Source: a virus. From it: a stretch of DNA of 44,975 bases. Both the position numbers and the translations under genes were made by a program. The notes beneath the pieces were generated by a model, which saw only the letters and a list, made by a program, of their open reading frames with translations, was not told the DNA's origin and made no database searches. The stretch lies in the UHGV virus genome UHGV-0285350; one strand, 5' to 3'. Shown here piece by piece: positions 4,584 through 44,975 of the stretch; the first letter of the stretch is position 1, and each line of letters begins with the position of its first letter.

Positions 4584-5351
4584 TCACCCCATAGATATCG
4601 AGGTTTCGGTAATAATACGTTTTGCGTCCAACTCCCATGCTGTGATCACGTCTGCAATCACACTTATCGGCGCTTGTGTGGCATAAATACGCTCTTCTCC
4701 AATTGGTGCTGAAACATCCGTAAAGCCGACTTCTTTGGCATCCTGTATCGAGCAAATCAGCGGGACCGGGACACGAACAAGGTGAGTGGTTGCTTCAAAT
4801 TGTGTACCTGTCATCAGGCGAAGCCGTGCGCCCAGCGAATTACACATCAGACTCATGGTCGCTTTATCAGTTGCCATTAACGTGACGTCATACGTCAGAA
4901 TGGCCTGGGTGTATTCCAGTTCTGCTAAAGGCATTCCGGTATCCGGTTCGCAAAAACTGGCTACTTTTTTGCGGTCAATCTGCTGATCATCGTTGATATA
5001 ATTGATATCCATATTGCGTGAGATATTGACCAGGGGGAGAGCATCCCGGTTAATGTTCTGGTTTTCAGGTTTTCTCCCTTGCCCGGCATTTGCGCGACGA
5101 ACTGCTTTAAGAAACTCGATCGCATTGTCGAAACGGGCCACATAGACACGCTCTGCTGGTGGACGATTCAGGAATGACGCAAAGCGTTTTTCTTCCGGCG
5201 CGGGGGCCACCAGTAAGATATCAGAAAAAATGTTGCTGATTAGCGTCGCAAACGCGTTATCCACGTTTTCAAAGCCCGTGGTCTGGAATTTTCCTGTGCG
5301 TGAGGTTTGCCATTCACCTGTTCGCGCCAGGAGGGTTTTATTTGAAGTCAT
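4584..5351 (-). CDS. hypothetical protein (member of leftward 4-gene module)
   Basis: 255-aa ORF, 3-nt gap to downstream gene and overlapping upstream gene; no motif recognised. Confidence 0.5.
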   Translation of the reverse strand: MTSNKTLLARTGEWQTSRTGKFQTTGFENVDNAFATLISNIFSDILLVAPAPEEKRFASFLNRPPAERVYVARFDNAIEFLKAVRRANAGQGRKPENQNINRDALPLVNISRNMDINYINDDQQIDRKKVASFCEPDTGMPLAELEYTQAILTYDVTLMATDKATMSLMCNSLGARLRLMTGTQFEATTHLVRVPVPLICSIQDAKEVGFTDVSAPIGEERIYATQAPISVIADVITAWELDAKRIITETSISMG

Positions 5352-6139
5352 TCGATCACTCCGTTTTGAGTCGTATCAAAATTCCTGGCAGGTATGCAGT
5401 AGTAAAGCGAACCAACATGCTGTGTGCCGTAGCTAAAAATACGGTGCACGTACCACCAGCGGCGCGCTACGCCGTTTACCATCTCTTCATTCCATTCAAG
5501 AATTGAGCCGACGGGGACGTTATTTGCTGCAATACGCAGAATCAGAACATCATCGGTTAAGCCATCCTGCTCACCGTCTGCGTCAATCGCATGGAAAGAG
5601 TCACGCCCGTCAGGGTTATCCAGCACATAAACGATTTCAGGTTCCTGGTAAGTCAGTTCGCGTTGGTTGTTATCCAGTTCGGTGAATGACTCTTCTCCTG
5701 TTTCGTCGCTGACTACCCCATATGTGCCAACATCTGGTCGATATAAGAGAGCCTGAAACGCGTCTGGGCTGGATTCAATAATCAGCATCCAGTCTGCGCG
5801 GATTTGGTCGTTAAAGGCTTTATGCCCGTTATAGCGTGCTTTTAACTGTGGAGTCGGTTCTCTGCCAGCCAGGGAAGATGGAAGTATGGCTATATCTGAT
5901 TCGCCAGCATCCGGAGTAAGGCCACCGTTGCTATCAGCAAAATTATCATGGCTATCAGCTTTGGCGGCGGGTTGCTCTTCCAGAATGCTGAATGAATCCG
6001 AACCGGTATTGCCATGTTCCGGCGCGCCTCCTGCATTCGCTTCAATCGGCGCTGGCGTTTCTCTCTGCGTGCTGTCATGTTCTGACTCCTTACTTGCCAG
6101 GTTTGCATCGTCAGCAAACCATTCGTCAAAACGGCCCAT
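5348..6139 (-). CDS. hypothetical protein with acidic, low-complexity N-terminal half
   Basis: First gene of the leftward module; start placed at ATG (MGRFDEW...) 6 nt after AGGA; track ORF begins at TTG 6151. Confidence 0.5.
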   Translation of the reverse strand: MGRFDEWFADDANLASKESEHDSTQRETPAPIEANAGGAPEHGNTGSDSFSILEEQPAAKADSHDNFADSNGGLTPDAGESDIAILPSSLAGREPTPQLKARYNGHKAFNDQIRADWMLIIESSPDAFQALLYRPDVGTYGVVSDETGEESFTELDNNQRELTYQEPEIVYVLDNPDGRDSFHAIDADGEQDGLTDDVLILRIAANNVPVGSILEWNEEMVNGVARRWWYVHRIFSYGTQHVGSLYYCIPARNFDTTQNGVIE

Positions 6140-6233
6140 AAGCATCCTCAAAGGTCGATCTGTCAGGTATCGAAAGGAAGATTTTCTGGAGATTGTGATT
6201 TTGGATGAAGGAGGGGGAATTCATAAAATGCAC

Positions 6234-6262
6234 TTGCGCACAGTGCAGCGGTGCGCTATAGT
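6234..6262 (+). promoter_or_regulatory. candidate sigma70 promoter for higBA (-35 TTGCGC, 17-bp spacer, -10 TATAGT) overlapped by inverted repeat GCGCAC-N9-GTGCGC
   Basis: Hexamers and spacing read from sequence; palindrome overlapping the spacer is the usual arrangement for antitoxin autorepression. Confidence 0.4.
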
Positions 6263-6301
6263 TATGGCATTCGGTAATCATCACGGAGGATCAAATGACT
6301 A

Positions 6302-6604
6302 ATGACCAAAAAAATTAACATAAAGGATTTCAGGGATGCGTGGCTTGATGATTTTTTTGAATTTTCAACACCACATAGAAAGATACCTCCTGATATTCAT
6401 ATGACATTGTCACGGAAGTTGGACATTATCAATGCCGCAACTACCTGTAAGGATTTAAGATCACCACCAGGTAATCGGTATGAGGAACTGTCAGGGAAGC
6501 TAAATGGCTATTCATCAGTAAGGGTGAATAAGCAATATAGGTTAATTTTTAAGTGGGTTAACGGAAAGGCCGAGGACTTGTATCTCGACCCTCACAAATA
6601 CTAA
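6302..6604 (+). CDS. higB: type II toxin HigB (RelE/ParE superfamily)
   Basis: C-terminal LSGKLNGYSSVRVNKQYRLIFKWVNGKAEDLYLDPHKY aligns with HigB LKGDREGYWSITVRANWRITFQFINGDAYILNYEDYH; toxin-first order with HTH antitoxin directly downstream. Confidence 0.8.
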   Translation: MTKKINIKDFRDAWLDDFFEFSTPHRKIPPDIHMTLSRKLDIINAATTCKDLRSPPGNRYEELSGKLNGYSSVRVNKQYRLIFKWVNGKAEDLYLDPHKY

Positions 6605-6674
6605 AACAGATACCCGGTTACGGACCGGGTTCTGACCAGAGTCCACTTAATACGCACGCTAGTAAGGGCAAAAA

Positions 6675-7013
6675 ATGAAACAGGCAACCAGAAAACCGAC
6701 GACCGTAGGTGATATCCTGCTGTACGAATACCTGGAGCCGTTAGAGCTGAAGATCAACGAGTTGGCAGAAATACTTCATGTTCATCGTAACACCGTAAGT
6801 GCTCTTGTTAATAATAATCGTAAGCTAACGATGGATATGGCATATCGCCTGGCAAAAGCATTCGATACTTCTGTAGATTTTTGGATTAATCTTCAGACCG
6901 CAGTAGACCTGTGGGAAGTCGAAAATGATATGCGCGTTCAGGAAGAGTTAAGTCGTATCAATACTGCTGAAAAATTTATTTCTCAGCGGAACCTGAATAA
7001 AAAAGCAGCCTGA
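6675..7013 (+). CDS. higA: antitoxin HigA (XRE-family HTH, VapI type)
   Basis: N-terminal HTH LAEILHVHRNTVSALVNNNRKLTMDMAYRLAKAFDTSVDFWINLQ typical of HigA/VapI antidote proteins; immediately downstream of higB. Confidence 0.8.
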   Translation: MKQATRKPTTVGDILLYEYLEPLELKINELAEILHVHRNTVSALVNNNRKLTMDMAYRLAKAFDTSVDFWINLQTAVDLWEVENDMRVQEELSRINTAEKFISQRNLNKKAA

Positions 7014-7069
7014 TATAGTAAAACACATACAAAAAGCCCACTTAGCAAGTGGGCTTTCCTTTGTAATTA

Positions 7070-7372
7070 ATGAACATTAAACCTATCCGTACAGAACAAG
7101 ATTATGAGGCCGCACTGCGTGCGGTCGAACCGATGTTCGATAACGAGGAGTACGAGAAAAAACATTACCCAATTGAGCCACCATCACCTATTGAGGCCAT
7201 TAAATTCCGTATGGAACAGCAAGGGCTGACCGTGAAGGATCTGGAACCGGCGATTGGTAAGTCAAATCGTGTTTACGAAGTGCTAAATGGGACACGAAAT
7301 TTGACGTTACCTATGATTCGCCGTTTACATTCCCAGTTTGGCATTCCTCTTGAAAGCTTGGTTGGTATTTGA
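7070..7372 (+). CDS. second HTH (XRE-type, C-terminal HTH) antitoxin-like regulator
   Basis: C-terminal LTVKDLEPAIGKSNRVYEVLNGTRNLTLPMIRRLHSQFGIPLESL resembles HigA-family antitoxins with C-terminal HTH; no cognate toxin directly upstream. Confidence 0.6.
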   Translation: MNIKPIRTEQDYEAALRAVEPMFDNEEYEKKHYPIEPPSPIEAIKFRMEQQGLTVKDLEPAIGKSNRVYEVLNGTRNLTLPMIRRLHSQFGIPLESLVGI

Positions 7373-7434
7373 GTTTGGCGGTCTGGATGACCGCTATTTT
7401 CATAAAATAGATATTAGAAATCACGGTAGTTTAT

Positions 7435-8163
7435 ATGAATACAGATTCATCAACAGAAAAATTGACTGAAAATGATCTAATCAAAGTATCTTTTGGAGAT
7501 GCCATAAAAGACAAGCTTTTTAATAAAGTGTTTGCATATATATTCATTTCTTTTCTAATTATTAATTGGAAAGATATACTAATATTGATGAAGTCAAAGG
7601 ATGATATCCTATATACTTTATCTGTAACATTTGTTGGAGGTAAGATTCCTCTAGTTTATGAAGGCGTTTTGTCTCCTTGGTTTTATCATTTTTGCTTGCC
7701 ATTTATTTTTGGAATTATTGCATCAATTGCAGCTCCGATTGTCACTCTTTGCGTATCAAAGCTAACAAGTAAAATATATACAGAGATAAGGTATTTGGAT
7801 GCCGACATGGATCAAAATAAAAGAAAGGCGTTGCAAATAAAAGAGACTGAAATAATAAAAAGTATTAATGATACACAATTCAACAAAAGAATTATGGATG
7901 AAAATAAAAATGAACTTGAGAGATTGCTTAGGCAGCAAAAAGAGATTATGGCGGCAATAAAATTATTATATGATGATGTTGGAGTTATCATTGAGCTTTT
8001 TAAAAGTAGAGGGGTTGGTATTGACTCCCCAGAAAAGTTATATGATTTTGTAATGGCAATAAAGAAGACTTCGCTTTATAATGGTGATCATGATTTTAAT
8101 AAATTGGTTGCTGATATTTCAAATTTATTTGATAAAACGGAAATTGATTTTTCAAAAAGATGA
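7435..8163 (+). CDS. hypothetical membrane protein (2 predicted TM helices plus Lys/Glu-rich coiled-coil tail) in strongly AT-rich DNA
   Basis: Hydrophobic segments VFAYIFISFLIINW and FYHFCLPFIFGIIASIAAPIVTLCV; region about 7380-8200 is markedly AT-rich relative to flanks. Confidence 0.6.
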   Translation: MNTDSSTEKLTENDLIKVSFGDAIKDKLFNKVFAYIFISFLIINWKDILILMKSKDDILYTLSVTFVGGKIPLVYEGVLSPWFYHFCLPFIFGIIASIAAPIVTLCVSKLTSKIYTEIRYLDADMDQNKRKALQIKETEIIKSINDTQFNKRIMDENKNELERLLRQQKEIMAAIKLLYDDVGVIIELFKSRGVGIDSPEKLYDFVMAIKKTSLYNGDHDFNKLVADISNLFDKTEIDFSKR

Positions 8164-8196
8164 AAGCCTAGCCTAGGCAGCTAGGCTATGTGTGGT

Positions 8197-9390
8197 TTAT
8201 GCTTTTTTTACATACTCCATGAACATTTTTTCAGCTTGTGCTGGTGGTGTTCCAGCCATGACAAGCGCATCAATGAACGCCTGCTTCTTCAGTGCGAACT
8301 GATCGGCAAGGCGTTGCTGAAGCTCCTTGTTTTTCTGTTTCTCACGTTGCAAGGCCGCTTCTTTTGCTGCCGCCCGTTTTTTCTGTGCATCTGACAACTT
8401 TCTGGCCTTGGTCAATTGGTCACGTAGTTTGTCGATCTTGCCGTTGTCCTTTGCCAGTTTTGTACTTAAAGCTGCCTGGCGCTTCTGATAGAGTCTCCAT
8501 TCGCGTTTGGCGGCTTCAACGTTCGTTTTACTGCTACGATTGCGATTAAACTCCTTCTCGTCTTCTTTTGAGAAGTGTTTGGTTGTACGTCGGCGATCGT
8601 CACCAAATGCAATTTGCGTTGCAGCCTTTTGTAGTGCACGAGCAATACTCATTTGCCAACTTGCGGACTGTAACCGCGTCATTGAGTGGATCACGTGTTT
8701 ACAGGCGACGCCTTGTAGCTTAGGGTTACGAACTTTTGGATAGGCGTATTCTTTTGGCGGGGCCAGGGCAAAGTTACCCGCAGTAGCGATGTAACGATAC
8801 CAGTATTGATGACGACCACAGTCACAATCGAAAGACACTCGCCCGGCGCACAGTGATTTAGTGATTTTCAGAGCTGATTTATCGTCTTCTGCGATGTCAT
8901 CGACCATCTGATCCCATTCTTCAAAGCGTATCCGGACGATATGGTGCTGGTGGACGGATATATCCGATGCTTCTACGCGGATATTAATCACGTTGTGGCG
9001 AAGAGATACGGGTGTAGCTCTTTTGATACCAGATCCGTCATCCACGGCGTTATTTGCACGCTTAATATCGATTGCCTGGCTGGATGCCACCAGCTGGGCG
9101 TATGTGATGCCAGCCGTCTTGCTGTCATATTTTTCGCGCGTTTTACTCCGTAGCTTTTCGAAACCTTTCAGGTCGTCTCGCGTGAAGAACGTGCCGCCTT
9201 TTTTCTTCCCTAACTTGAGAATATCTTCGGCGGATTTGTTCCTCAGTCTACCTGGCGTCAGAGTCCGGTGAGCTTGTCGGCGCTTACGGGTTTGTTCTTT
9301 CCTGATAAGATCGAATAAACGCGTGAAGTCCTTAGAGGACAGACCGTCAGTGATATAGCGCCCGTCCTGGTTTTTCAGGAAATCAGGCAT
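8197..9390 (-). CDS. hypothetical protein with SWIM-type zinc-finger motif and Lys/Ala/Gln-rich coiled-coil C-terminus
   Basis: CDCGRHQYWYRY...GVACKHV fits CxC-xn-CxH (SWIM) pattern; 397 aa; stop convergent with the membrane-protein gene. Confidence 0.55.
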   Translation of the reverse strand: MPDFLKNQDGRYITDGLSSKDFTRLFDLIRKEQTRKRRQAHRTLTPGRLRNKSAEDILKLGKKKGGTFFTRDDLKGFEKLRSKTREKYDSKTAGITYAQLVASSQAIDIKRANNAVDDGSGIKRATPVSLRHNVINIRVEASDISVHQHHIVRIRFEEWDQMVDDIAEDDKSALKITKSLCAGRVSFDCDCGRHQYWYRYIATAGNFALAPPKEYAYPKVRNPKLQGVACKHVIHSMTRLQSASWQMSIARALQKAATQIAFGDDRRRTTKHFSKEDEKEFNRNRSSKTNVEAAKREWRLYQKRQAALSTKLAKDNGKIDKLRDQLTKARKLSDAQKKRAAAKEAALQREKQKNKELQQRLADQFALKKQAFIDALVMAGTPPAQAEKMFMEYVKKA

Positions 9391-9712: not shown

Positions 9713-9905
9713 AACAAAGCCTCTCAGTCATAACCTGGGGGAAACTGTATGCAGGGTGTGAAATGCGAGAAACAGACAGGCCACCAGTTCAGGGGGATGT
9801 GGTTCATAAATCCCCTCACTGGTGACAAGTGACTTTCATTAATCTTTATGCGGGGGCCAGCTTCATTTGCTGGCATTAGATTAAAAATTAAACGGAGTGA
9901 ATGAC

Positions 9906-10040
9906 ATGGATGTTATCTTCGAATTATTAATGCTAATTGATCTGTTTATGAACGCTTCATTGACCACTCAAATACTCGCGTCAATATTTTTGTTACTCTT
10001 CTACCTGGTATTGAGGGAGTTAACAAAGCTACTAATGTGA
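9906..10040 (+). CDS. possible small hydrophobic peptide (44 aa, one TM-like segment)
   Basis: ATG after GGAGTG; translation MDVIFELLMLIDLFMNASLTTQILASIFLLLFYLVLRELTKLLM*; AT-rich; below the track's 60-aa cutoff, coordinates from my own reading. Confidence 0.3.
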   Translation: MDVIFELLMLIDLFMNASLTTQILASIFLLLFYLVLRELTKLLM

Positions 10041-21164: not shown

Positions 21165-21640
21165 CAAACAAAATTGACTATCAAAAACTTCGTGAAATCG
21201 CTGAAAAAACAAAAATTGCTGGTGAAGCACCTGTAATGCCTTTCGATCAGCGAATTAATGCGCTTAACGATTTTATGAAGCACTTTTCGCCAGATATCGC
21301 GTTGGCATTGTTGGATGAAGTTAAACGCCTAGAAGACACAAATATTGATTCTATATGCCGAATTGCAGAGATGGAGACGCGGGAAATAAAACCAGCAAAA
21401 GGCGAAGTTCTTGTCGTTGTATCTGGTTTTACTGGTTGCGGAAAAAGCGCCATTGCCGGGGAAATAGAAATCGCGATGAAGGCTATTGGTGTACCGGTTC
21501 AGTGGACTAATGGCGATGCAGAAAAGCGCATGACAGGAGCTGACTGGCTGACAGCAATTGAGATGTACAAACCAACAGTGCGCATCGTTGAAGTTAATGT
21601 GCCACGCGTCCCTGGCATTCGCATCAAAGGAGGTGAGTAA
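21161..21640 (+). CDS. hypothetical small P-loop protein
   Basis: VVVSGFTGCGKSAIA matches Walker A GxxxxGK[ST]; only 159 aa. Confidence 0.45.
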   Translation: MTNKIDYQKLREIAEKTKIAGEAPVMPFDQRINALNDFMKHFSPDIALALLDEVKRLEDTNIDSICRIAEMETREIKPAKGEVLVVVSGFTGCGKSAIAGEIEIAMKAIGVPVQWTNGDAEKRMTGADWLTAIEMYKPTVRIVEVNVPRVPGIRIKGGE

Positions 21641-21816
21641 TGCGTGTGGCATGTATCGGCTTGTTACCGTACCCGACTCGTTTTTGGGCTTCTGCGCTAA
21701 TTGCAAAGCCACATGTACTGATGGCTGACAACATCATCCCGGCACCAAATCGCCGCCATACCGGTATTGCAGCGGCACGACGTGCAGCAAAGAAACGCAG
21801 GAGAGCAAAGCGATGA
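21640..21816 (+). CDS. possible small Arg/Lys-rich protein (58 aa)
   Basis: ATG overlaps upstream stop (TAATG) and is preceded by AAAGGAGGTGA SD; stop overlaps next ATG; not in track (<60 aa). Confidence 0.45.
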   Translation: MRVACIGLLPYPTRFWASALIAKPHVLMADNIIPAPNRRHTGIAAARRAAKKRRRAKR

Positions 21817-21995
21817 AAAACCGTAAGGCAAAAATTCTGTTAGCTCGCAGAAACGGTGTTGGGGTCTGGCGATGGTTGAGGATTAGTAACAGACGAGTGA
21901 GGTTGACGGGGTGTTGCGGGGTGATGTTGCACAGCTGTTGCAAAAAGCCCAGCGCGGCGCAAAACCGCTGGAAGAATCACACTAACGCAAAGTAA
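21813..21995 (+). CDS. possible small Cys-rich basic protein (60 aa)
   Basis: ATGA overlap with upstream ORF; CCGVMLHSCC cluster. Confidence 0.35.
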   Translation: MKNRKAKILLARRNGVGVWRWLRISNRRVRLTGCCGVMLHSCCKKPSAAQNRWKNHTNAK

Positions 21996-22012
21996 TTAAA
22001 TAATAACCAATA

Positions 22013-22038
22013 ACAGACCAAAACATATGTTTTGGTCT
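22013..22038. promoter_or_regulatory. perfect 26-bp palindrome CAGACCAAAACAT|ATGTTTTGGTCTG, followed by a second CCAAAA-N6-TTTTGG repeat
   Basis: Read from sequence; exact dyad symmetry around AT|AT; sits between the early operon and the gemA region. Confidence 0.45.
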
Positions 22039-43985: not shown

Positions 43986-44975
43986 TGCCGTTTCCTGTTC
44001 CGGGCGTTGCTGAAAACACAGAACGCCAGCTACGTGATATCGCTAACGCCCTGCCGGGAGAAACCATCGACACCGGCGCTGACAGCGATTACCGCATTCG
44101 TGCAAATGCCGTATCCGGCGTGGCGGAGGGGCTTTTTATGCATCAGGGATGGATCCTCCGTCAGGTGTTTCCTGACACGGCAGACCCTGAATATCTGGAG
44201 TTGCACTGCCGCACGCGCAATGTTTTTCGTAAAAAAGCAACAACCTCATCCGGTCAGGCCGTGATTACCGGCACACCCGGTAAGACGCTGCCAGCCGGTG
44301 CGGAAATTCGTGGTGAAGGTGTCAGCGTGGCCACCATAGCAGACTGCACCATCGGTGATGAAGGCAGCGCAGAGGTGACGGTAAAAAGCACCGCCACGGG
44401 TGCACAGATGAATGCATCCACGACGCAGACGGCAACGCTGGTCAGCCCGCCTGAAGGCATCAACAGCACGGTGACGATTAAATCCCTGACCGGCGGAACG
44501 GACAGGGAAAGTGACGCCGACCTGCTGGCGCGTTATCTGGATATTCTGCGCAGGCCGCCCGCTGGCGGTAACAAATATGATTACAAACGCTGGGCGCTGG
44601 AAGTGGATGGCGTTACGTCTGCATATGTGGAGCCATTGCGCAGAGGGAAAGGTACTGTTGATGTGGCCATTACGTCAGCCAATGACCTCCCCTCGCAGGA
44701 ACTGATCAATGCCGTGCTGGCACATATTGAGGAAGTCCGCCCGGTCACAGCGAAAGACACGATGGTACTGGCCCCGACGAAAAAAGCCGTTGATTTCATT
44801 GTCCGGGTAAAAACCAGCGGCCTGACCGTTGAGCAAATAAAACCGCAGATAACTGGCGTTATCACGGATTTTATGAACCGACTGGAGCCGGGGCAGGAAT
44901 TAATTATTTCACAGCTGGAAACACAGATTTCATTAATTTCCGGTGTCAGTGACCGGCGAATCGTTACGCCAGCAG
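43985..44975 (+). CDS. baseplate J-like protein (Mu gp47-like), 3' end outside window
   Basis: ATG overlaps gp46 stop (TAATG); frame open to window end (about 330 codons); my own translation MPFPVPGVAENTERQLRDIANALPGETIDTGADSDYRIRANAVSGVAEGLFMHQGW... Confidence 0.7.
   Translation, partial: MPFPVPGVAENTERQLRDIANALPGETIDTGADSDYRIRANAVSGVAEGLFMHQGWILRQVFPDTADPEYLELHCRTRNVFRKKATTSSGQAVITGTPGKTLPAGAEIRGEGVSVATIADCTIGDEGSAEVTVKSTATGAQMNASTTQTATLVSPPEGINSTVTIKSLTGGTDRESDADLLARYLDILRRPPAGGNKYDYKRWALEVDGVTSAYVEPLRRGKGTVDVAITSANDLPSQELINAVLAHIEEVRPVTAKDTMVLAPTKKAVDFIVRVKTSGLTVEQIKPQITGVITDFMNRLEPGQELIISQLETQISLISGVSDRRIVTPA

Follow-up and report, generated by a model that had tools for sequence, protein, structure and literature searches.

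The virus genome UHGV-0285350, a stretch of 44,975 nucleotides (nt) that we call the window, carries at positions 7435-8163 a strongly AT-rich gene for a membrane protein of 242 amino acids (aa). This gene is the last of four plus-strand genes (6302-6604, 6675-7013, 7070-7372 and 7435-8163) that are found between two tail genes on the minus strand. Between 6150 and 8200 the window and Escherichia phage D6, a P1-family phage-plasmid, share 99.5% identity, and the four genes correspond to D6 orf70-73, in the same order and at the same position; the membrane gene is no different in the two elements. In D6, orf70-73 are placed between tail genes resembling genes 7 and 25 of P1. Likewise, the left flanking gene in the window (5348-6151, minus strand) matches phrog_1906 'tail protein' (E = 1.6e-116) and corresponds to D6 orf69, annotated as 'similar to P1 gene 7', and the right flanking gene (8197-9390, minus strand) matches phrog_1722 (E = 4e-197) and corresponds to D6 orf74, annotated as 'similar to P1 gene 25'. 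We take genes 7 and 25 to be directly adjacent in P1, so that the four genes presumably occupy an insertion. The region 6150-8200 is present in 97 complete E. coli genomes, solely on plasmids of around 90-97 kb. Rfam finds no RNA family in 5800-8600.

The membrane gene lies exactly where a first-pass annotation of the bare sequence had placed it, with a product of the length given there, and the AT-rich island that this annotation described is borne out by a GC scan. The open reading frame (ORF) at 7435-8163 has a GC content of 0.291 (0.23 at third codon positions, GC3), compared to 0.38-0.50 for the neighbouring genes and 0.45-0.50 for those that flank it. Using the D6-like part of the window (1-22000) as background, this ORF is the single GC minimum among all 729-bp segments in these 22 kb (mean 0.467, standard deviation 0.038, z = -4.66).

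Comparison of D6-like plasmids also supports the idea, raised by the same annotation, that the gene was acquired horizontally. In these plasmids the membrane gene behaves as a cassette, with edges at around 7394 and 8202, and divergent alleles sit inside near-identical flanks: the membrane proteins are 38-58% identical, whereas the flanks reach 95-99% identity in most plasmids of the comparison and 86-88% in the most divergent. Each edge is marked by a terminator-like hairpin. The left one (7376-7396, plus strand) follows the gene at 7070-7372, and the right one (8169-8188) works in both directions, being common to the membrane gene and the convergent tail gene. One plasmid, pEC7-3, has the left hairpin without the membrane gene.

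Homologues of the membrane gene are found in a variety of other settings. Lone homologues on the opposite strand are present in P2-like prophages (flanked by the tail gene S region and by spike gene V), in lambdoid phages (between the replication and nin genes) and in an epsilon15-like Uetakevirus (in the lytic block). Integrative islands carry homologues beside genes for an integrase or a resolvase, or beside DUF4145 and WYL genes, and the chromosome of an Enterobacter has a single homologue by itself among genes of housekeeping type. In one genome assembly (NCBI GCA_977068995.1, locus L019, 3309-4732) a homologue starts 11 bp downstream of a DUF4145 gene with a resolvase gene adjoining.

The window protein is 99% identical to D6 orf73 and matches phrog_8191 from end to end (residues 1-242 on profile positions 1-242, E = 7.5e-115). 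All 38 sequences of our family alignment (A6) match the same profile. The family is small, and its member in the window is already on record as a hypothetical protein (D6 orf73, phrog_8191). The exact 242-aa protein is found on 163 contigs from E. coli and Salmonella. A word-based search returned 17 clusters, all of them enterobacterial, and an exhaustive profile search of 1.84 billion representatives returned only 70 matches at E <= 1e-3. Five PHROG families, all of unknown function, cover the superfamily, which is therefore phage-borne. Pfam, NCBIfam and PADLOC scans of the window protein and its 38 relatives identified no family and gave only low-level coiled-coil matches. The earlier statement that the protein cannot be assigned to a known family thus stands for Pfam, NCBIfam, PADLOC and PDB alike.

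Two hydrophobic segments stand out in the hydropathy profile, at residues 32-52 (7528-7590) and 85-108 (7687-7758). They are followed by a long charged helix at residues 112-191 (7768-8007), of which 37.5% of the residues are charged, and by a small helical C-terminal part. AlphaFold2, run with an alignment of 13 sequences, models residues 81-191 as one continuous helix that is succeeded by the small helical end (mean predicted local distance difference test score (pLDDT) 65, predicted template modelling score (pTM) 0.26, with pLDDT 83-92 for residues 121-170). The two transmembrane (TM) helices and the charged tail of the first-pass annotation are accordingly retained. Its coiled coil is plausible only, because a crude heptad test with a single register gave no significant signal (the observed value was reached in 1801 of 5000 shuffles). 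The net charge across the family is +0.9 before the first TM segment, -0.3 in the loop and +1.2 after the second. From this weak positive-inside bias, a topology with both ends in the cytoplasm (N-in/C-in) is weakly favoured.

Conservation is concentrated in the membrane part. The first segment carries a family signature consisting of Y35, S39 and N44-W45, followed by a K-S-K loop; N44 is invariant, S39 is found in 35 and W45 in 33 of the 38 aligned sequences. In the second segment P89 and P101 are invariant and G93 is nearly so, and small or polar residues recur at a spacing of 3-4 positions (G93, A96/S97, P101, T104, S108, T111). The N-terminal signature is kept across the 38 sequences, down to an overall identity of around 13% with the window protein. 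Divergence is about twice as rapid in the C-terminal half, where alleles have an identity of 0.25-0.57, compared to 0.49-0.62 in the N-terminal half. Nonsynonymous divergence (dN) between alleles is lower than synonymous divergence (dS), and since dS is saturated (above 1), the comparison is uninformative beyond dN < dS. With its frame and length conserved, dN below dS and a conserved signature, the membrane gene is a real gene under purifying selection.

We propose that the membrane gene encodes a stand-alone exclusion or abortive-infection (Abi) protein of the inner membrane that is expressed in the lysogen, a reading to which we give a probability of about 45%. We favour it because the gene is a foreign, AT-rich cassette on the opposite strand, because its product combines a conserved anchor with a variable tail, and because the family occupies accessory sites of four types of phage. 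Such a pattern is the hallmark of genes through which lysogens counter other phages. The function is what we infer from this genomic context, and the gene may reasonably be regarded as a candidate for a new prophage-borne family of exclusion or defence proteins. The first-pass annotation had proposed an abortive-infection or toxin module made of two genes. Insertion on the opposite strand in four kinds of temperate phage suits a lysogen-expressed exclusion or Abi gene, as that proposal would have it; its two-gene form is not supported.

Under the exclusion or Abi reading, the 242-aa gene would be a self-sufficient moron of a D6-like P1-family phage-plasmid, which entered along with toxin-antitoxin (TA) genes, in the orientation opposite to the tail operon, and which moves from one element to another as a cassette. 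The N-terminal pair of hydrophobic helices would anchor the product in the inner membrane, while the charged helix and the small domain at the C-terminus would most likely be cytoplasmic. Acting from the prophage state, the protein may block genome entry at the inner membrane (superinfection exclusion). Alternatively, it may oligomerise through the conserved polar face of its transmembrane part and damage the membrane once triggered (abortive infection). In both cases the variable C-terminal half could set the specificity.

SieB of lambda and P22 (PF14163) and SieA of P22 offer a comparison. According to the lambda and P22 annotation they are, like the membrane gene, prophage genes that run against the neighbouring lytic operon. 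As in the window protein, N-terminal hydrophobic segments are followed by a soluble part, and a similar kind of inner-membrane action may be proposed.

A number of results weigh against an exclusion or Abi protein. A relationship to SieB was rejected, with hhalign probabilities of 0.2% (lambda) and 0.7% (P22) and no match to Pfam SieB, as was one to SieA of P22, for which hhalign gave 3.3% over a hydrophobic stretch of 29 columns only. PADLOC-DB v2 has no match to the window protein, and its matches to the relatives, at most 4 of the 38, are scattered on the coiled-coil parts of LmuB or JetC. A search of PDB sequences with a profile of the membrane family yielded only coiled-coil noise, and a Foldseek search of the structure model, which is of moderate confidence, against BFVD and PDB yielded nothing with E < 0.8. 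In sum, these profile and fold searches found no similarity to a characterised exclusion or defence protein. As for expression, a sigma-70 promoter scan gave no convincing candidate directly upstream of the membrane gene, the nearest one being at 7289-7317 inside the upstream gene, and an inverted-repeat search found no operator-like palindrome. Two terminator-like hairpins (7033-7057 and 7376-7396) separate the gene from the higBA promoter. Given the missing promoter and these two hairpins, expression in the lysogen is something we infer only. A gene of 29% GC is also, on general grounds, likely to be silenced by H-NS. Finally, the gene seems dispensable, because it is lost in pEC7-3 and cut by insertion sequence (IS) elements in Klebsiella plasmids.

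Several of these observations would suit a membrane protein with no role in defence, for example one that alters the host envelope or influences cell division or maintenance of the plasmid prophage, or a neutral hitch-hiker. The lack of homology to any defence protein and the dispensability seen in pEC7-3 and in the IS-disrupted Klebsiella copies are in line with such a role, as is the Enterobacter homologue that stands by itself among chromosomal genes of housekeeping type; membrane-anchored charged helices are, moreover, common in scaffolding proteins. Nevertheless, alleles of 38-58% identity alternate at one site within near-identical flanks, and relatives occupy the accessory sites of four types of phage. 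Such allele turnover is typical of conflict-driven genes and not of housekeeping genes, and the strongly conserved N-terminal signature opposes neutrality. We therefore consider a non-defence or neutral gene somewhat unlikely.

We also considered a role in lysis or in the virion, as a holin-like or spanin-like protein whose helix would be periplasmic if only the second segment spans the membrane. A membrane anchor followed by a long helix is superficially like the inner-membrane spanins, and the gene is located among tail genes. However, it is transcribed opposite to the late genes, it is AT-rich, foreign, variable as a cassette and missing from pEC7-3, and its position between genes 7 and 25 is that of an insertion. 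The one match of this kind, to a 'hol-like' PHROG, is weak and restricted to one of the 38 family members (E = 1.8e-4). A lysis or virion protein is thus extremely unlikely.

The gene directly upstream (7070-7372, plus strand, 100 aa) is the homologue of D6 orf72 and is an orphan of the E. coli K-12 HigA/YgjM class. That it encodes a HigA-like helix-turn-helix (HTH) protein, as the first-pass annotation had it, is confirmed by Pfam (HTH_3, E = 2.3e-5) and by the full-length 119-aa form of D6, which matches E. coli HigA in PDB 5IFG/5YCL (E = 8e-8, residues 6-112). The gene appears to be a second HigA, of a class distinct from the one encoded at 6675-7013. In the K-12 system (YgjN/YgjM; PDB 5IFG, 5YCL, 6KML), HigA, with which the D6-type HTH protein aligns, is composed of an N-terminal toxin-binding domain and a C-terminal HTH, and a HigB of the PF09907 type is encoded next to it. 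The window has no such HigB: tblastn gave no PF09907 match anywhere in it. The start codon of the HTH gene, 56 bp from the higA stop, lies 12 nt past the end of the hairpin at 7033-7057, and no recognisable Shine-Dalgarno sequence precedes it.

The HTH gene shows several forms of decay. Compared to D6, the window has a 57-bp in-frame deletion in this gene, which is absent from all five relatives compared. The deletion junction is at 7144/7145, with a 2-bp microhomology (GA), and the 119-aa protein has lost 19 aa, residues 26-44. These residues presumably belong to the toxin-binding N-terminal domain; the HTH domain is kept. Since at least 11 contigs from separate samples encode exactly this 100-aa product, the deletion marks a natural lineage and not an artefact. 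An intact membrane gene lies alongside in every one of these contigs that was checked. Other plasmids have lost the opposite end of the gene. Among 112 plasmids of PLSDB with the HTH gene, at least 80% of it is present in 39. When the remaining plasmids were evenly sampled, 25 of the 26 listed matches retain nt 1-182 alone, so that the whole HTH domain is deleted. At least 10 of the plasmids with the truncated gene carry an intact 242-aa membrane allele, which belongs to the largest cluster (535 member sequences). In pGF60-C the HTH gene contains an internal stop. Conversely, the HTH gene of pEC7-3 is complete and still followed by its hairpin, and the membrane gene is lacking there.

These observations bear on the model of the first-pass annotation, in which the HTH protein is the repressor or antitoxin and the membrane protein the depolarising toxin or Abi effector of a two-gene module. 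The two genes are indeed adjacent on the same strand, 62 bp apart, and a HigA-type HTH gene precedes a membrane homologue in two diverged lineages (29% identity for the HTH proteins, around 34% for the membrane proteins). Yet the DNA-binding half of the HTH gene is gone in around two thirds of the D6-like plasmids while the membrane gene stays intact, and the internal stop of pGF60-C, the 19-aa deletion in the window, the HTH gene of pEC7-3 without a membrane gene, the homologues that stand alone in several types of phage and the terminator-like hairpin between the two genes all point the same way. In the plasmids compared, the two genes do not show, in either direction, the obligatory co-occurrence expected of a TA module. 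Together, the decay of the HTH gene beside an intact membrane gene and the situation in pEC7-3 exclude an obligatory relationship of repressor and effector or of antitoxin and toxin. The HTH gene is not the partner of the membrane gene, and the two are independent. The two-gene module appears already largely refuted by these comparative data, and we regard it as very unlikely.

The first two genes of the insertion are predicted to form a complete HigB/HigA type II TA pair, with the toxin gene first. The product of the first (6302-6604, plus strand, 100 aa, D6 orf70) is a RelE-fold HigB toxin of family PF05015 (Pfam HigB-like_toxin, E = 4.4e-35, 120.5 bits with a curated cut-off of 27; phrog_3066, E = 3.7e-37). 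Its partner (6675-7013, plus strand, 112 aa) is a HigA antitoxin (TIGR02607 antidote_HigA, E = 7.9e-30, 102.5 bits with a curated cut-off of 47.7; HTH_3, E = 7e-11). Downstream of higA, the terminator-like hairpin at 7033-7057 (plus strand) has a perfect 11-bp stem with an A-tract on its 5' side and T-rich sequence on its 3' side. The first-pass annotation had stated that the HTH gene has no cognate toxin upstream. This is correct in that no PF09907-type HigB is present in the window; it left unmentioned the unrelated complete HigB/HigA pair directly upstream.

Sister elements suggest where the orphan HTH gene may come from. At the same tail-gene site, Enterobacter phage-plasmids encode a PF09907 HigB, an overlapping HigA of 139 aa and a membrane homologue of 245-270 aa, and the same trio of PF09907 HigB, HigA and membrane gene is found in Klebsiella IncFIB plasmids. 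The D6 HTH protein is 29% identical to the 139-aa HigA of these sister elements, and the membrane proteins are around 34% identical. Judged from these sequences, the HTH gene appears to be the decaying relic of a HigA antitoxin without its PF09907 HigB. The simplest history would be an ancestral row of HigB (PF09907), HigA and membrane gene, from which the D6 lineage lost the toxin, its antitoxin decayed, and an unrelated HigB/HigA pair was gained upstream.

In several Klebsiella IncFIB plasmids (L006, 3938-5765; L027, L028, L029), IS5-family elements have split the membrane homologue, which follows an intact pair of PF09907 HigB and HigA; IS903B is found after around 140 codons and ISKpn26 after around 66 codons. 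These interruptions suggest that the membrane gene is dispensable or costly, or simply that an AT-rich gene is a target for IS elements. In addition, on one metagenomic contig (locus L038, 3068-4726), a distant homologue is found 93 bp downstream of a TacA-TacT pair, which has a GNAT toxin.

A third arrangement would make the membrane protein part of a TA-derived system of three genes. In such a system the TA pair would sense infection, loss of the labile antitoxin would de-repress the operon, and the membrane protein would be a co-transcribed executioner or accessory; in D6-like elements the original HigB would have been lost and a different HigB/HigA pair would have taken over. This reading is in line with the row of PF09907 HigB, HigA and membrane gene, overlapping or closely spaced, at the same tail-gene site of the Enterobacter phage-plasmids and again in the Klebsiella IncFIB plasmids, with the distant homologue 93 bp behind TacA-TacT, with the complete HigB/HigA upstream on the same strand in the window, and with the precedent of the TA-derived defence systems PD-lambda-2 and CmdTAC (PMC9519451). 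However, most sampled lineages have no TA pair beside the membrane gene; one is immediately upstream of the homologue in around 3 of 11. Furthermore, TA pairs often occupy the same hotspots (several D6-like plasmids have a second RelE/HigA pair at the next one), terminator-like hairpins separate the genes in the window, and HigBA persists in Klebsiella after the membrane gene has been disrupted by IS elements. We consider such a three-gene system improbable.

Known systems of comparable layout differ from the window in their components. PD-lambda-2 has three genes, one for a HigB-like toxin, one for a HigA-like protein and one further component (Vassallo et al. 2022; PMC9519451). Its component B is a HigA-like HTH fused to a C-terminal peptidase of the ImmA/IrrE type (PMC9519451). 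The window HTH protein matches the PADLOC model PD-Lambda-2_B (E = 3.2e-32) at positions 3-119 of 402 only. It shares solely the HigA-like N-terminal domain, has no peptidase domain and ends at 100 aa, and the PADLOC models of PD-lambda-2 are matched neither by the window HigB nor by the 242-aa protein. With the peptidase fusion and the two other components absent, membership in PD-lambda-2 was ruled out.

Toxin-antitoxin-chaperone systems are a second case; HigBA1 and its SecB-like protein in M. tuberculosis form such a system. They resemble the window in having a TA pair and then a third gene on the same strand. Their third gene, in contrast, encodes a SecB-like chaperone that binds the antitoxin, whereas that of the window encodes a membrane protein that is also found without a TA pair. 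CmdTAC, composed of a TA pair and a SecB-like chaperone, is a proven phage defence (PMC9519451).

The D6-like plasmids have a second accessory site, which corresponds to 9713-10040 in the window and lies between a gene-26-like baseplate gene and a mat-like gene. An extra pair of RelE/ParE toxin and HigA is found there in pGF60-C, pB2C_96 and pEC7-3 (L002, 7698-8269; L004, 7767-8338; L005, 6925-7496). In the window and in D6, this site has only around 330 bp of non-coding or short-ORF sequence. A D6-like element with the same deleted HTH variant also carries a glutaminyl-tRNA synthetase-like gene (tRNA-synt_1c; L031, 1644-3305). Such a gene has been reported in D6-like plasmid prophages (PMC6799933).

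The D6-like phage-plasmid sequence ends at around 21,980 of the window. The remainder, from around 21,360/22,014 to the end at 44975, corresponds to the late genes of a Mu-like prophage (Mor, Mu portal, Mu F, protease I, gpT head, sheath, tape measure and baseplate). It has a GC content of 0.52-0.61 and is around 95-96% identical to prophages whose usual location is the E. coli chromosome. The D6-like and Mu-like parts meet in an overlapping ead/Ea22-like segment (junction at 21360-22014), and the junction is present in no complete E. coli genome of our collection. Over its first 17 kb the window matches a MEGAHIT-style metagenome contig of 45,007 bp (ENA ERZ27298367, k119_1479) at 100% identity. 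Given the ead/Ea22-like overlap, the absence of the junction from these genomes and the metagenome contig, the junction may have arisen either in the assembly, as a chimera joined at a shared repeat, or by genuine recombination.

A bolder form of the proposal combines the single gene with its occasional neighbours. The family would then be a previously unrecognised one of single-gene inner-membrane anti-phage effectors in P1-, P2-, lambda- and epsilon15-like phages, wired in several lineages behind TA pairs (two types of HigBA, and TacAT) that would switch on its expression in response to infection, as a TA sensor plus membrane executioner. We consider this form quite improbable.

Without a phage phenotype, the gene would be an ordinary hypothetical membrane gene beside a decaying antitoxin. 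D6-like phage-plasmids are common in E. coli and Salmonella, as seen from the 163 contigs with the exact protein and from the 535 members of the sister allele cluster. If the membrane protein does exclude other phages or abort their infection, it would represent a new and widely exchanged single-gene defence family from temperate phages and phage-plasmids, and the locus would also be an example of TA pairs and effector cassettes being shuffled at one hotspot in the tail region.

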